Source: Escherichia coli (GTDB taxonomy: Bacteria > Pseudomonadota > Gammaproteobacteria > Enterobacterales > Enterobacteriaceae). From it: 19,881 bases of DNA. Shown here in pieces: positions 1,087-19,497 of the stretch. The translations under genes were made by a program, and so were the position numbers. The notes under the pieces were generated by a model. It was not told the DNA's origin and made no database searches. It was given only the letters and a program-made list of their open reading frames with translations. Position 1 is the stretch's first letter. Each line of letters begins with the position of its first letter. The stretch lies in assembly GCF_003334785.1 (NCBI RefSeq), contig NZ_QOWV01000032.1; one strand, written 5' to 3'.

Positions 1087-1563
1087 GTGAGTAATACACA
1101 ACACAAGCTTGATAAAGCCCGACCTCCACGAGTACAGATAACCTACGATGTTGAAACCGGAGATGCTGAAACCGCGAAAGAGCTACCTCTGGTCATCGGT
1201 GTTCTGGGGGAGTACTCGTCATCAGAAAAACCGTTGAGAGAGCGAAAATTCATTAGTATAGACAAAGACAATTTTGATGAAGTTATGGCATCAATGAGTC
1301 CGAAGGCTCATTTTATGGTGGACAGTGTTCTACCGGGCACTGAAGGTAAACTGGATGTCGAACTGAATTTTAATTGTAAAGACGATTTTTCTCCCGATAA
1401 TGTGATTCAACAGGTTGATTGTCTCAGAAAATTATCGGAATTGCGCTCTCACCTCTGTGACCTGCGAAACAGGACCGCAAGTAATGAAAAACTGAAAGAA
1501 AAACTTCAGGAATTACTGGTGAATACTAATAGCAATCCTGAAAATGATGACAGTAAGGAATGA
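1087..1563 (+). CDS. tssB: T6SS contractile sheath small subunit TssB (VipA)
   Basis: 158 aa, GTG start. Contains RVQITYDVETGDAETAKELPLVIGVLGEYSS...RKFISIDKDNFDEVMASMSP, which matches the conserved TssB/VipA core. The stop overlaps the tssC start (ATGA). Confidence 0.9.
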   Translation: MSNTQHKLDKARPPRVQITYDVETGDAETAKELPLVIGVLGEYSSSEKPLRERKFISIDKDNFDEVMASMSPKAHFMVDSVLPGTEGKLDVELNFNCKDDFSPDNVIQQVDCLRKLSELRSHLCDLRNRTASNEKLKEKLQELLVNTNSNPENDDSKE

Positions 1564-3044
1564 ACATGACAATTGCATCAACATTAGGGCAGAATGAAAC
1601 ACAGTATGCTACAGATGATTGTCTTGAAGAAATTATAAATAATACCAGAGCTGTAAGACAGGATTCTGAAAAGAACCGGTTTAAATTACAGGTTAATAAT
1701 TTTCTTGCTGAAGTTGCCAGTGGTTCTTTAGTCATTAGCAGTGATTTAATCGGTAGTATTGAAAAGCGAATTGCTGATATTGATAAGTTGATGTCTGAGC
1801 AGCTTAGTCTGATTATGCATGCAACTGAGTTTCAGAAAATCGAGTCAGCATGGACGGGGCTTTATAAGCTTGTTCAGTCCAGTGTTACTGAAAATGTAAA
1901 ATACACAGTGCTGCACTGTACCAAAAAAGAGTTACTCAAGGATTTTAAATCAGCCTCGGATTTCGACCAGTCAGTATTATTTAAAAATATTTATGAAAGC
2001 GAGTATGGAACGTTCGGGGGAACACCGTATTCTGCTTTTGTGGGTGACTTCTATTTCGATAATACTCCACAGGATATTGATTTACTGGAGCATATTTCCC
2101 ATGTTGCTGCCAGTGCGCATGCCCCGTTTTTGAGTGCTATTGCTCCGGGGATGCTGTCCATGAATTCATTTAGCGAATTACCCTACCCGCGTGATCTGGC
2201 TAAATTGTTTGAAACGACCGATTATGCCCGTTGGCGTAGTTTCCGGCAGACCGATGACAGCCGTTATGTGGGACTGACTTTGCCACAGTCTCTGGGGCGT
2301 ATCCCATATGGCATGAAAACTGTACCTGCTGAGACGTTTAATTTTGAAGAGCACATCAGTGAAGACAACTCAGGCAAAGACTATCTGTGGGTAAATACCG
2401 CGTTTGAACTGGCCTGCCGGATAGTTGATGCTTTTGAGGAGTATGGCTGGTGTGCAGCCATTCGTGGTGTGGAAGGTGGTGGTCTGGTTAAATCATTACC
2501 GGCCTATAATTATACATCCCATACAGGTGAGCGACTTTTACAATGTCCGACTGAGGTTGCTATCTCAGACCGCAGGGAAAAAGAACTGTCAGACCTCGGC
2601 TTTATTCCACTTATTTACTGTAAGGGTACCGATTTTGCCGCATTTTTTGCTGTACAGTCGGTGAACAAACCACGACTGTATAATACTGATCAGGCGAATG
2701 CGAATGCAAAATTATCCAGCCAGCTTCAGTATATATTAGCCACGTCGCGATTCGCACATTATCTGAAAGTGATTGTTCGTGACAAAGTGGGAAGCTTTAT
2801 GTCGAAGACAGAATGTCAGACATATCTGCAAAACTGGATCATGCAATATGTTGTGGCATCAGACAGCGCCGGCCAGGATACAAAGGCCCGTTATCCGTTA
2901 CGTGAAGCATCTGTTGAAGTTGTTGAGATTCCTGGAAGTCCAGGATCGTATCGTGCAATTGCATGGATTAAACCTCATTTTCAGCTTGAGGGCTTAAGCA
3001 TGTCATTGCGTCTTGTTGCAGATTTACCATCAAGTGTAAGTTAA
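1560..3044 (+). CDS. tssC: T6SS contractile sheath large subunit TssC (VipB)
   Basis: 494 aa, typical TssC length and position directly after tssB. Conserved TssC-like stretches (e.g. FVGDFYFDNTPQDIDLLEHISHVAASAHAPFLSAIAP). Confidence 0.93.
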   Translation: MNMTIASTLGQNETQYATDDCLEEIINNTRAVRQDSEKNRFKLQVNNFLAEVASGSLVISSDLIGSIEKRIADIDKLMSEQLSLIMHATEFQKIESAWTGLYKLVQSSVTENVKYTVLHCTKKELLKDFKSASDFDQSVLFKNIYESEYGTFGGTPYSAFVGDFYFDNTPQDIDLLEHISHVAASAHAPFLSAIAPGMLSMNSFSELPYPRDLAKLFETTDYARWRSFRQTDDSRYVGLTLPQSLGRIPYGMKTVPAETFNFEEHISEDNSGKDYLWVNTAFELACRIVDAFEEYGWCAAIRGVEGGGLVKSLPAYNYTSHTGERLLQCPTEVAISDRREKELSDLGFIPLIYCKGTDFAAFFAVQSVNKPRLYNTDQANANAKLSSQLQYILATSRFAHYLKVIVRDKVGSFMSKTECQTYLQNWIMQYVVASDSAGQDTKARYPLREASVEVVEIPGSPGSYRAIAWIKPHFQLEGLSMSLRLVADLPSSVS

Positions 3045-3053
3045 GAGGTTTTT

Positions 3054-16965: not shown

Positions 16966-16968
16966 GAA

Positions 16969-19497
16969 ATGAGTACTTACCTGAAATCAATAATTAAAAA
17001 ATTATCTCCAGAAAGCCGAAGTACTCTGGATTCTGCTATTAATTACGCAATATCACGATCACACCATGAAGTCGATTGTTTGCATTTTCTGTGGAAGCTA
17101 TTACAGGAACATAAGTCAATAACCGAAAAGTTTTCTGAACTGTCTTTATTTAACCCTGACAGGGTCCTGCATGCCATTGAAAGTGAGCTCATCCTTATCA
17201 ATACAGCGTCACAATCCTCACCTGTATTTTCTGAGTCGATGCAAACTCTGCTGGAAAAAACATGGATACATGCCAGCACTAAATGGCAGTCTAATCATAT
17301 AGATATCCCTGTCTTGTTGACCACTCTGATTACTCTCAGAGATTCAATATTACCTTACAATGTGGTCGGGGCGTTATATTGTGATGTGGATGTTGCAGAG
17401 AAATTTCTGCTATCTTTGTCTGTAAAAACAGAGCATTCTTCTCATCGTGCCACGGATAATGCGCCACATGAATATATCAACAAATATACTGAAAATTTCT
17501 CTTTGCTGGCCGAAACAGGGAAACTGGATCCTGTTACTGGCAGAGAGAAGGAAATCAGGCAGCTTATCGATATTTTGCTTCGTCGCAGACAGAATAATCC
17601 GATACTGACCGGTGAACCTGGTGTCGGGAAAAGCAGTATTGTTGAAGGTTTAGCCCTGCAAGTTGCATCCGGCCGTGTGCCTGACGCACTGAAGAATGTC
17701 AGGATCCTTGCGCTTAATATGGGCGCTCTGCTTGCGGGGGCCAGTGTCAGAGGGGAATTTGAAAATCGCTTAAAATCGCTCTTAACCGAACTTAATTCTC
17801 TGGATGGTACCGCTATTTTGTTTATTGATGAGGCCCATTCCCTTATCGGTGCAGGAGGACTTCCCGGACAAACGGATGCAGCGAATTTACTTAAGCCTGC
17901 TCTTGCCCGTGGGGAATTGCGCATTATCGCCGCCACGACATGGGGAGAATACAAAAAGTATTTTGAAAAGGACGGCGCATTAGCCCGGCGTTTTCAGATA
18001 GTCAAAGTCACAGAGCCAAATCAGGATGTCACAGCAGGGATGCTACGTTCTCTTTTACCCATGATGGAAAAGCACCATAACGTCTCCATCAGGGAAGAAG
18101 CAATAACTGCCACGGTACATTTATCCGACCGTTATCTGCACGGGCGTCGTCAGCCTGATAAATCGGTCAGTCTGCTGGATACAGCCTGCTCACGGGTTGC
18201 TGTATCTCAGTCCACCTCCCCGGATGCCATTCAGGATCTTGAAGCCTCATTAGCCAGACATCAGGGAGAACTTGCTCTGCTGACACAGGAAAAATCAAAT
18301 GTTCGGCGTCAGGAAATGCTTGTAAATGAAATTGCTCAACTTGAGATGGATCTTGAGCAACTGAAATCAGCATGGCGTCATCAAAGTGAACTGGTTGCCA
18401 GGATACAAAGTACAGATGATGTATCATCAAAGGATATGTACAGAAAAGAACTGGAAAGTGCATACAGGAAAGACAGCCCTATGGTTTTTGAGTGTGTTGA
18501 TAAAAACTGTGTTGCTGATGTCGTGTCAGGGTGGACAGGTGTCCCACTGGGTGTATGCCTTGATAGTGAACAACAAAAAACATCCGGTCTGTTAAGATGT
18601 CTGGAGCAACGGGTTTTGGGGCAACGATATGCTATGTCTGCGATAGCATCACAAATCCTTATTTGCCGGGCAGATCTTAAAGATCCGGTAAAACCCGATG
18701 GGGTATTCTTACTTGCAGGCCCTTCTGGTACCGGCAAAACGGAGACAGCCAGGGCGCTGGCCGAGTTTGTTTATGGGGATGAGAATAAACTCATCACGAT
18801 TAATATGACGGAATTTCAGGAAGCTCACACGGTTTCCACTCTGAAGGGCGCTCCTCCAGGATATGTCGGTTTTGGTCAGGGAGGGACTCTTACCGAAAGA
18901 GTCAGTCATAATCCATACAGTGTTATTCTGCTTGATGAAATCGAAAAAGCACATCCGGATGTTCTGGAGTTCTTTTTTCAGATATTCGATTTGGGGATCA
19001 TCGAGGATTCTGAAGGTAAAATGGTGTCTTTCCGGGATTGTCTCATCATAATGACATCCAACCTTGCCAGTGAAAAGATAACGAGCATATGGGATGAGGG
19101 GGAGATCGATAAAGACAAAATAAAAGAAATGGTGCTTCCTTTATTTAATGAACATTTTGGCACCGCTTTCATGGGAAGAGCGAACTTAATTCCGTTCACT
19201 CCGTTGCATACCAGAACACTCAGGGATATCGCAATTATTAAAATTGATAAGATCTGCCAGCGTTTTGAACGGGCATCTGGTCAGATGTATAAAATAGACT
19301 ACAGTGACACTCTTATTGACTGGATTACACATCATTGTCAATGTGACAAGTCTGGTGCGAGGGATATCGATGCCGTACTTAACAGAACGGTTCTCCCTGT
19401 CCTTGCCAGATATTTAATTGACTCTGAAAATAATAAAACAACAAAAAAAATAAGAATGTCAGTAAGAAAAAACAATATTACGTTACGTAATTCGTAA
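16969..19497 (+). CDS. clpV: ClpV (TssH) AAA+ ATPase for sheath recycling
   Basis: 842 aa. Clp N-domain followed by two AAA+ modules: Walker A1 GEPGVGKSS, Walker B1 ILFIDEAHSL, Walker A2 GPSGTGKTE, Walker B2 ILLDEIEKAH. AGGAG RBS within the end of tssM. Confidence 0.96.
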   Translation: MSTYLKSIIKKLSPESRSTLDSAINYAISRSHHEVDCLHFLWKLLQEHKSITEKFSELSLFNPDRVLHAIESELILINTASQSSPVFSESMQTLLEKTWIHASTKWQSNHIDIPVLLTTLITLRDSILPYNVVGALYCDVDVAEKFLLSLSVKTEHSSHRATDNAPHEYINKYTENFSLLAETGKLDPVTGREKEIRQLIDILLRRRQNNPILTGEPGVGKSSIVEGLALQVASGRVPDALKNVRILALNMGALLAGASVRGEFENRLKSLLTELNSLDGTAILFIDEAHSLIGAGGLPGQTDAANLLKPALARGELRIIAATTWGEYKKYFEKDGALARRFQIVKVTEPNQDVTAGMLRSLLPMMEKHHNVSIREEAITATVHLSDRYLHGRRQPDKSVSLLDTACSRVAVSQSTSPDAIQDLEASLARHQGELALLTQEKSNVRRQEMLVNEIAQLEMDLEQLKSAWRHQSELVARIQSTDDVSSKDMYRKELESAYRKDSPMVFECVDKNCVADVVSGWTGVPLGVCLDSEQQKTSGLLRCLEQRVLGQRYAMSAIASQILICRADLKDPVKPDGVFLLAGPSGTGKTETARALAEFVYGDENKLITINMTEFQEAHTVSTLKGAPPGYVGFGQGGTLTERVSHNPYSVILLDEIEKAHPDVLEFFFQIFDLGIIEDSEGKMVSFRDCLIIMTSNLASEKITSIWDEGEIDKDKIKEMVLPLFNEHFGTAFMGRANLIPFTPLHTRTLRDIAIIKIDKICQRFERASGQMYKIDYSDTLIDWITHHCQCDKSGARDIDAVLNRTVLPVLARYLIDSENNKTTKKIRMSVRKNNITLRNS

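Follow-up and report, generated by a model that had tools for sequence, protein, structure and literature searches.

Type VI secretion systems (T6SSs) of the aai kind, also known as Sci-2 or T6SS-3, have been described since 2006, and the literature places them in subtype i4b (PMC10761095, PMC12282107). The aai cluster is known from enteroaggregative Escherichia coli (EAEC) strains 042 and 17-2; in 042, it lies on the chromosome, in the pheU island (PMC6730261). The aaiA-P block suffices for secretion of AaiC in strain HB101, with aaiB, aaiG, aaiO, and aaiP being required (PMC6730261, citing Dudley 2006). In Dulbecco's modified Eagle medium, Sci-2 mediates ClpV2-dependent killing of E. coli K-12 (PMC5048182). 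Plasmid-borne copies have been catalogued in enterotoxigenic E. coli (ETEC), where i4b systems occur exclusively on plasmids larger than 100 kb (PMC10761095), and in Shiga toxin-producing E. coli (STEC), where the T6SS-3 of strain RM9088 is carried by a plasmid (PMC10562709). The structurally characterized Sci-1 (T6SS-1) of EAEC shares the 13-component architecture and has a TagA-type ImpA_N/VasL accessory gene at its locus (PMC6745524), but belongs to a different subtype; components of the two systems are not interchangeable, in that ClpV1 and ClpV2 fail to complement each other and Hcp1 interacts with TssB1 but not with TssB2 (PMC5048182). The stretch of DNA analyzed here (the window; 19,881 nucleotides of E. 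coli contig NZ_QOWV01000032.1, assembly GCF_003334785.1) contains, at positions 1087–19497, a gene cluster that is very probably an intact, plasmid-borne copy of this T6SS-3 (aai/Sci-2, subtype i4b, the subtype being adopted from the literature).

The cluster consists of 15 intact open reading frames (ORFs), all on the plus strand, which fill 1087–19497 in the order tssB, tssC, aaiC, tssE, tssF, tssG, vgrG, a gene for a protein with the domain of unknown function DUF6931, PAAR, tssA, tssJ, tssK, tssL, tssM, and clpV, that is, the 13 T6SS core genes plus the PAAR and DUF6931 genes. The claim made from the letters of the DNA alone (the original prediction), that all core genes and PAAR are united in one co-directional cluster, was thereby borne out, but the identity of this cluster with the known aai/T6SS-3 locus, which it matches gene for gene in EAEC 042, had been missed. 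The 042 chromosome aligns with window positions 1046–19626 as a single co-linear block at 85% nucleotide identity; its positions 4893043–4911465 match 98% of the cluster and contain 15 of 15 genes in identical order, and it is on account of this co-linearity that the cluster was assigned to aai. The third gene of the 042 locus is named "AaiC/Hcp2" in RefSeq.

Unlike the chromosomal aai cluster of 042, the copy in the window resides on an IncFII plasmid. At 100% identity, the window matched two E. coli plasmids, NZ_CP069544 (80,965 bp, strain FDAARGOS_1248) and pWP7-S17-ESBL-04_2, the latter of which differs from it at five positions only. The window is not an exact substring of the NZ_CP069544 record. 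NZ_CP069544 is an IncFII plasmid that, besides eatA and a CS22-like fimbrial operon, encodes an AraC-family regulator and an ANR protein; the host replicon is an ETEC-type plasmid. When searched without the insertion sequence (IS) ends of the window, the cluster turned up in 100 of 5426 complete E. coli genomes, with plasmids accounting for half of the copies, and 51 plasmids in PLSDB matched it, including one from Salmonella and one from Yersinia. This distribution fits the horizontal acquisition that had been proposed originally. The plasmid-borne T6SS-3/i4b clusters of STEC and ETEC are of the same kind and likewise sit on large virulence plasmids, but the flanking IS content differs from plasmid to plasmid.

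The core genes were tested with NCBIfam models at their curated cut-offs and with Pfam; alternative gene starts are those of the NCBI Prokaryotic Genome Annotation Pipeline (PGAP) in the NZ_CP069544 record, converted to window coordinates. Nine core genes scored above the NCBIfam cut-off. The sheath subunits are encoded by tssB (aaiA; 1087–1563; TIGR03358, 166 bits, cut-off 97; 92% amino acid identity to 042) and tssC (aaiB; 1560–3044, PGAP start at 1566; TIGR03355, 674 bits, cut-off 271). They are joined by tssF (3999–5801; TIGR03359, 450 bits, cut-off 260), tssG (5792–6724 with the PGAP start, the longest ORF beginning at 5765; TIGR03347, 169 bits, cut-off 143), the spike gene vgrG (tssI, aaiG; 6737–8776; TIGR03361, 352 bits; Pfam Phage_GPD, Phage_base_V, and Gp5_trimer_C), the product of which is 19 residues longer than that of 042, tssA (9566–10642; TIGR03363, 226 bits, cut-off 161; Pfam ImpA_N, E = 5.7e-30), tssK (11220–12599, the longest ORF starting with TTG at 11202; TIGR03353, 259 bits, cut-off 100), tssL (12937–13554; the short form of DotU with a C-terminal transmembrane helix; Pfam DotU, E = 4.2e-30; TIGR03349, 91.2 bits, cut-off 89.95), and tssH (clpV, aaiP; 16969–19497; TIGR03345, 940 bits, cut-off 885), encoding the AAA+ ATPase that recycles the sheath.

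TssE, TssJ, TssM, and PAAR stayed below the NCBIfam cut-offs, but each matched its Pfam family. For tssE (3584–4006, overlapping the start of tssF by 8 nt), which encodes the gp25-like baseplate subunit, GPW_gp25 matched with E = 4.9e-5 (TIGR03357, 24.5 bits, cut-off 53), and the gene lies at the expected place in the cluster. For the outer-membrane lipoprotein gene tssJ (10650–11201), it was T6SS-SciN with E = 1.8e-6 (TIGR03352, 18.8 bits, cut-off 31.6); a signal peptide and a lipobox (...FITAC, with the cysteine at position 20) can be read from the TssJ sequence. The divergent tssM (aaiO; 13561–16965) matched IcmF-related_N with E = 9e-16 (TIGR03348, 45 bits, cut-off 388), and the stand-alone PAAR protein (99 amino acids; 9263–9562), highly conserved in relatives, matched PAAR_motif with E = 1.6e-19. 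The profile check of the core genes thus carried nine assignments by curated models; the Hcp gene obtained no match at all, and TssE, TssJ, and TssM required evidence beyond the sub-threshold scores. Since the curated Pfam and NCBIfam profiles alone miss Hcp and under-score three further components, automated calls of T6SS "completeness" may err for this subtype. All parts of a canonical T6SS-i were nevertheless found: sheath, Hcp, baseplate, spike with PAAR, membrane complex, and TssA with ClpV.

The product of the third gene (3054–3575) is a divergent Hcp tube protein, AaiC, as judged by fold, profile–profile match, and synteny. Its sequence matched no Pfam family even at E ≤ 10, no NCBIfam model, and, either as single sequence or as profile, nothing of significance in the PDB. 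An AlphaFold2 model (built on ten homologues; mean pLDDT, a per-residue confidence score, of 71) was searched with Foldseek against the PDB. Among the 50 best listed matches, all were Hcp proteins save three fusion constructs with an Hcp1 scaffold; the best E was 4e-7, and TM-scores (a measure of structural similarity) ranged from 0.5 to 0.65. In hhalign, the family profile of AaiC gave a co-linear alignment of 137 columns (E = 4.5e-4) with the Hcp proteins, recognized by Pfam, whose genes take the place of aaiC in distant relatives, and the gene is the positional orthologue of aaiC in EAEC 042. Homologues of AaiC are rare (12 clusters among 5.8 billion proteins) and stem from Escherichia or Salmonella wherever the organism is named. 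AaiC is also the fastest-evolving protein of the cluster, with 60% amino acid identity to its 042 counterpart and a ratio of nonsynonymous to synonymous substitution rates (dN/dS) of 0.41; for an Hcp, it is unusual to be the most divergent member of its cluster. The window protein carries an extra N-terminal segment compared with 042 AaiC; residues 1–18 (window 3054–3110) form a poorly modeled extension that is absent from distant orthologues. Most AaiC homologues of E. coli and Salmonella with a full N-terminus start with MG(G/S/A)xxS, in keeping with the pattern for N-myristoylation in eukaryotes; AaiC of 042 starts with MVGVMS, which does not fit this pattern.

Every one of the 15 ORFs aligned end to end with its orthologues in EAEC 042 and in L002, a pig plasmid of 99% identity, and none was truncated; PGAP flags none of the 15 as a pseudogene in NZ_CP069544. 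The check for frameshifts and internal stops, on which the completeness of the apparatus had been made to depend, therefore came out in its favor. Pairwise dN/dS values against EAEC 042 ranged from 0.04 to 0.41 across the 15 genes, hence the genes are under purifying selection. The TssM protein deserves separate mention, because only its N-terminal domain matched a profile, so that a pseudogene was considered. This was rejected: TssM is full length (1134 amino acids, equal to AaiO of 042, with 80% identity), and purifying selection acts on it. Its counterparts in all syntenic relatives likewise match PF14331 only, from which it follows that divergence of the periplasmic domain characterizes the lineage and is not a defect. 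Sequence and profile searches of the PDB with TssM gave no significant match. Two clear hydrophobic segments were found near the N-terminus; a third, around residue 383, is weaker. The Walker A motif of TssM is degenerate; GxxxxGK[ST] is lacking, and the site (residues ∼106–116) reads GDSEKNAS. The P-loop of 042 TssM (GDSEKNNS) is degenerate too, and GK[ST] is kept in the distant relatives L004, L008, and L014. Because the orthologous 042 machine secretes, TssM of this lineage can probably do without binding nucleoside triphosphates.

The genes follow each other closely. At all junctions except that between tssK and tssL, the intergenic distances lie between −37 and +12 nt, which leaves no space for hidden genes. 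The proposed translational coupling of the operon fails at tssK-tssL, where 256 nt (from the longest ORF) or 337 nt (from the PGAP start at 12937) intervene. This non-coding gap (12600–12936) has a guanine-plus-cytosine (GC) content of 51.6% within a cluster of 40%. By local alignment, 66 nt of it (12740–12805) correspond to a transposase gene of an ISEc48-like IS3 element, in its 3′ part; the fragment has kept the orientation of the cluster and contains indels. A blastn search with the gap sequence hit transposase genes of the IS3 family in over 1000 E. coli genomes. The gap can be aligned with that of 042 (83% identity over 277 nt), whereas tssK and tssL overlap without a gap in distant relatives. 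The gap is, therefore, an old IS scar, which accounts for the missing "aaiM" between aaiL and aaiN in the published nomenclature. In the pEHEC plasmid of RM9088, an IS110 element lies between aaiL and aaiN (PMC10562709); the window contains only the old IS3 scar at this site. A 126-amino acid antisense ORF (12445–12825) and small ORFs within the gap were considered as the original aaiM and rejected, given the indels of the scar and the gapless relatives. A Rfam scan of the whole window returned no match, and, hence, no known RNA element in the gap. An internal promoter driving tssL, tssM, and clpV may lie in the gap with its scar.

From established T6SS knowledge, the following mode of action would be expected. 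TssJ, TssL, and TssM would form the envelope-spanning complex, and TssE, TssF, TssG, and TssK the baseplate around the VgrG trimer, the tip of which would be sharpened by PAAR. TssA would prime the polymerization of AaiC (Hcp) into a tube within the TssB/TssC sheath, contraction of the sheath would expel tube and spike, and ClpV would recycle the sheath. The product of the DUF6931 gene, AaiH, would act as a small, acidic, helical accessory of the VgrG–PAAR spike, and cargo would be loaded non-covalently, encoded beyond an IS3 insertion and near a gene for a TagA/VasL-like sheath anchor (see below). That this plasmid copy is active is suggested by analogy to the orthologous system of EAEC, for which machine-dependent export of Hcp and VgrG has been documented (PMC6730261, PMC5048182).

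On the left of the cluster, PGAP annotates a remnant of an IS21-family istB gene (44–148, plus strand) outside the T6SS, and bases 1–150 have a GC content of 54%. It is followed by an AT-rich stretch (151–348; 32% GC), in which a run of nine G residues (202–210) may be a slippage-prone or assembly-sensitive site, and by a hypothetical ORF of 122 codons (349–717, plus strand). The latter recurs in the related pig plasmid with 96% conservation; nothing in the 042 locus matches it, and its only NCBIfam hit is a weak one to SafB (E = 0.0038). It may be a gene remnant of the fimbrial (SafB pilus) chaperone type. The next 369 nt (718–1086, plus strand), presumed to hold the operon promoter, contain only 28.7% GC, compared with 39.9% in the cluster and 48.5% in 19498–19804. 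The originally proposed contrast between an AT-rich cluster and IS-associated flanks thus applies only to the outermost ∼150 nt on the left; the other flanks within the window are mixed. Values of 39.9% and 28.7% fit horizontally acquired DNA of the kind preferred by H-NS. On the right, similarity to the uninterrupted pig plasmid stops at 19804, and the left end of a partial IS3-family element follows (19805–19881, plus strand), with the transposase gene annotated by PGAP beginning at 19869.

Similarity to 042 upstream of the cluster extends only ∼140 nt before tssB, and the AggR-dependent aaiA promoter region of 042 (266 nt upstream of tssB) is not conserved; no counterpart of it was found in the window, where a search for AggR/Rns sites by the published rule (PMC6392122) returned one weak site only. 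A scan for σ70 consensus promoters yielded 59 sites, compared with 59.4 expected by chance, and no convincing promoter. Terminator-like sites were found at about twice the expectation, none of them convincing at the ends of the operon. A palindrome with an 11-bp stem (GTTACGTTACG...CGTAACGTAAT) spans the tssH stop codon (19477–19503) and scored as terminator-like on the minus strand only; within it, at 19491, the sister plasmid pWP7-S17-ESBL-04_2 has a 2-nt insertion, by which TssH grows from 842 to 847 amino acids. The missing AggR promoter bears on regulation and not on membership in the structural family. The window's own plasmid carries an AraC-family regulator (∼269 amino acids) and a small ANR-family regulator beside the CS22-like fimbrial operon (L010, 10722–12676). 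The pair resembles AggR and Aar of EAEC, in which AggR activates the aai cluster. By this analogy, AggR/Rns-type control of the cluster through the plasmid's own AraC-family and ANR genes is plausible.

Several of these observations weigh against an intact, working machine and would agree with a decaying, inactive passenger, complete on paper but no longer firing as a consequence of IS activity, promoter loss, and separation from accessory and cargo genes. IS remnants flank the cluster on both sides and occur inside it, as the scar at the tssK-tssL junction; IS elements abound on the plasmid as a whole; neither the 042 AggR promoter nor a convincing σ70 promoter was found upstream; the Walker A motif of TssM is degenerate; the direct link to the TagA-like gene has been cut by the partial IS3; and two genes downstream are truncated relative to full-length homologues. 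In addition, pWP7-S17-ESBL-04_2 has a 1-nt insertion at window position 16717 that shifts the frame of tssM, and in NZ_CP069544 the reading frame of eatA is disrupted by a frameshift. The lineage is, then, subject to decay; the tssM frameshift of the sister plasmid is, however, absent from the window copy. All 15 ORFs of the latter are intact, with dN/dS well below 1. EAEC 042, the system of which is active in experiments (PMC6730261, PMC5048182), has the same gap and scar and an equally degenerate Walker A motif, and TagA-type sheath anchors are accessory but not essential in other T6SSs (PMC6745524). The plasmid's AraC-family regulator and ANR protein could, furthermore, supply activation of the AggR/Rns type. 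An inactive passenger is, therefore, considered unlikely, and the intact T6SS-3 copy remains the preferred interpretation.

AaiH, encoded between vgrG and PAAR (8787–9254), had been put forward as possibly representing the otherwise unrecognizable effector. It matched no NCBIfam model but DUF6931 in Pfam (PF22011, E = 1.7e-12), in agreement with precomputed PF22011 matches on its homologues. The family is small; when 1.84 billion representative proteins were searched in full with HMMER, only 35 members were retrieved. The genomic context was compared in ten lineages, comprising the window, 042, and L002 together with seven distant members of 22–32% identity (L004, L005/6, L007, L008/9, L012/13, L014/15, and one JGI contig). 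In all ten, the DUF6931 gene directly follows vgrG, and in nine of them a PAAR gene (96–99 codons) comes next, the exception being L005/6 with vgrG-DUF6931 and no PAAR. The position is kept even in differently ordered loci, one reading hcp-hcp-vgrG-DUF6931-PAAR beside housekeeping genes, the other tssG-clpV-hcp-vgrG-DUF6931-PAAR, and in four loci the DUF6931 stop codon overlaps the PAAR start. The proteins have isoelectric points of 4.1–5.5, and the structure model is a confident, small, all-helical fold of eight helices, for which neither Foldseek nor sequence and profile searches of the PDB returned anything of significance. No toxin gene adjoins the DUF6931 gene in any of the loci, and neither the cognate toxin nor the tracking polymorphism expected of an immunity protein was found. 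Because its position among core genes is fixed and a toxin neighbor is absent, AaiH is most likely a dedicated accessory of the VgrG–PAAR spike (chaperone, adaptor, or cap) rather than a polymorphic effector or immunity protein, and a role as cargo is less likely; the gene proposed as a possible effector turned out to be a constant neighbor of vgrG.

The dN/dS of aaiH (0.37) is the second highest of the cluster, next to that of secreted AaiC, which would be compatible with secretion or a role as cargo, and the place directly after vgrG is where cargo or adaptor genes usually lie. Both would suit a small effector riding on the tip, or an immunity protein or inhibitor for a toxin encoded elsewhere. 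Against this, position and size are constant although the loci share only 22–45% identity, no toxin partner is adjacent, and the protein has no enzyme-like motif, signal peptide, or transmembrane segment, a pattern that fits a machine component better than one half of a polymorphic effector–immunity pair. That AaiH is the missing cargo is, thus, rather improbable. As a putative spike accessory, it shares with the T6SS adaptors and chaperones of the DUF4123 (Tap/Tec), DUF1795 (Eag), and DUF2169 families that it is small, acidic, cytoplasmic, and encoded beside vgrG and PAAR. It is, however, not related to them by sequence or fold, and the cognate effector gene that follows the known adaptors is lacking behind DUF6931. 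With SsdAI, the immunity protein of the T6SS deaminase toxin SsdA, and with DUF416 proteins, AaiH shares only 6–8% identity, without support from Foldseek or hidden Markov models and without a neighboring toxin gene. Sci-1 has a known cargo, Tle1, and is not known to carry a DUF6931 gene.

Within the window, profile searches of the ORFs (Pfam and NCBIfam) recognized no toxin or immunity domain, and the spike carries no extension. VgrG ends in its gp5-type β-helix with the terminus ...QIKGGIVNIG, which is common to its relatives, and without an additional C-terminal domain; the 99-residue PAAR protein is a PAAR domain only, so neither is a specialized (fused) effector. The original reading of VgrG and PAAR as unextended, and of the window as devoid of recognizable cargo, was accordingly upheld. 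Its corollary, that effectors are encoded elsewhere, was probably only half right, because the natural locus continues past the IS3 element with a TagA/VasL-like gene and small polymorphic proteins. In relatives, a VasL/ImpA_N (TagA-like) gene directly follows clpV; on the window's plasmid, the corresponding gene (383 codons), encoding a TagA-type sheath anchor, is located on the far side of the IS3, ∼2.6 kb after the tssH stop. From this arrangement, the ancestral operon can be reconstructed as continuing into the TagA/VasL-like gene, which the IS3 insertion at 19805 separated. Cargo is probably loaded non-covalently and probably encoded just outside the window, beyond the IS3 and by the TagA/VasL-like gene.

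Downstream of the TagA-like gene, three families of small proteins with conserved Cys/His motifs recur, found on the same plasmid 2.6–9 kb past the tssH stop (L011, 22084–28479), in the pig plasmid (L002, 32145–39549), and in L003 (33572–35771). Members of the first (124–168 amino acids) are labeled "kinesin" by PGAP; the full-length form shows Cys, His, and Asp motifs that appear papain- or C39-like by eye and matched no profile, and the copy on the window's plasmid is truncated at the N-terminus. The second family (188 amino acids) is 96% identical between the window's plasmid and 042 and 43–98% identical across E. coli. It has an invariant His56/Cys98 pair, and in 8 of 14 members the region around these residues matched Peptidase_C80 weakly (best E = 2.6e-4; 0.019 for the copy on the window's plasmid); sequence and profile searches of the PDB returned nothing significant. 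The third (154–199 amino acids) carries the motif DGCSVG...HAN. In 042, AggR activates the machinery together with the four hypothetical genes that follow it (PMC6392122). These three families are the best candidates for T6SS-3 effectors, possibly directed at the host; weak profile matches and motifs read by eye make them leads, and this, too, counts among the points that weigh against the overall interpretation. Two further genes of the pig plasmid, situated downstream of its T6SS-3, resemble type III effectors: a 196-amino acid protein (gene at L002 35586–36176) is similar to the C-terminal part of EspK/GogB (E = 7e-27), and a gene annotated as an AvrPphF-family effector (39835–40431) is followed by hha.

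It is conceivable that the system mainly targets host (eukaryotic) cells instead of bacteria, with the small Cys/His-motif proteins as cargo. In favor of this, the region of the 188-amino acid family that holds the His/Cys pair weakly matches C80, the family of the processing domains of MARTX (multifunctional autoprocessing repeats-in-toxin) and large clostridial toxins. The EspK/GogB-like protein and the AvrPphF-family gene of the pig plasmid point in the same direction, as do the absence of obvious immunity-like partners, the nature of the host replicon as a virulence plasmid with eatA and fimbriae, and the inclusion of the 042 cluster with its four downstream genes in the AggR virulence regulon (PMC6392122). 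The orthologous Sci-2 has, however, been shown to act against bacteria (PMC5048182), even the best of the C80 matches is weak, and the genes resembling type III effectors may be unrelated passengers. A mainly host-directed machine is, on balance, considered unlikely.

The cluster itself adds nothing new to the inventory of T6SSs; its value lies in the candidates it offers for T6SS-3 effectors and for the role of DUF6931. The latter is an uncharacterized but conserved spike-adjacent gene, mentioned by name in a single paper of the literature searched, and the comparative data offer testable candidates on both points. A joint interpretation, in which DUF6931 is an unrecognized, dedicated VgrG–PAAR component (chaperone or cap) and the downstream Cys/His proteins, including the C80-like one, are the cargo, can be put forward only tentatively, with the odds against it. 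If true, it would explain why T6SS-3 is without an assigned effector, and it would allow for a host-directed role of this system on ETEC virulence plasmids under the control of a Rns/AggR-type regulator.

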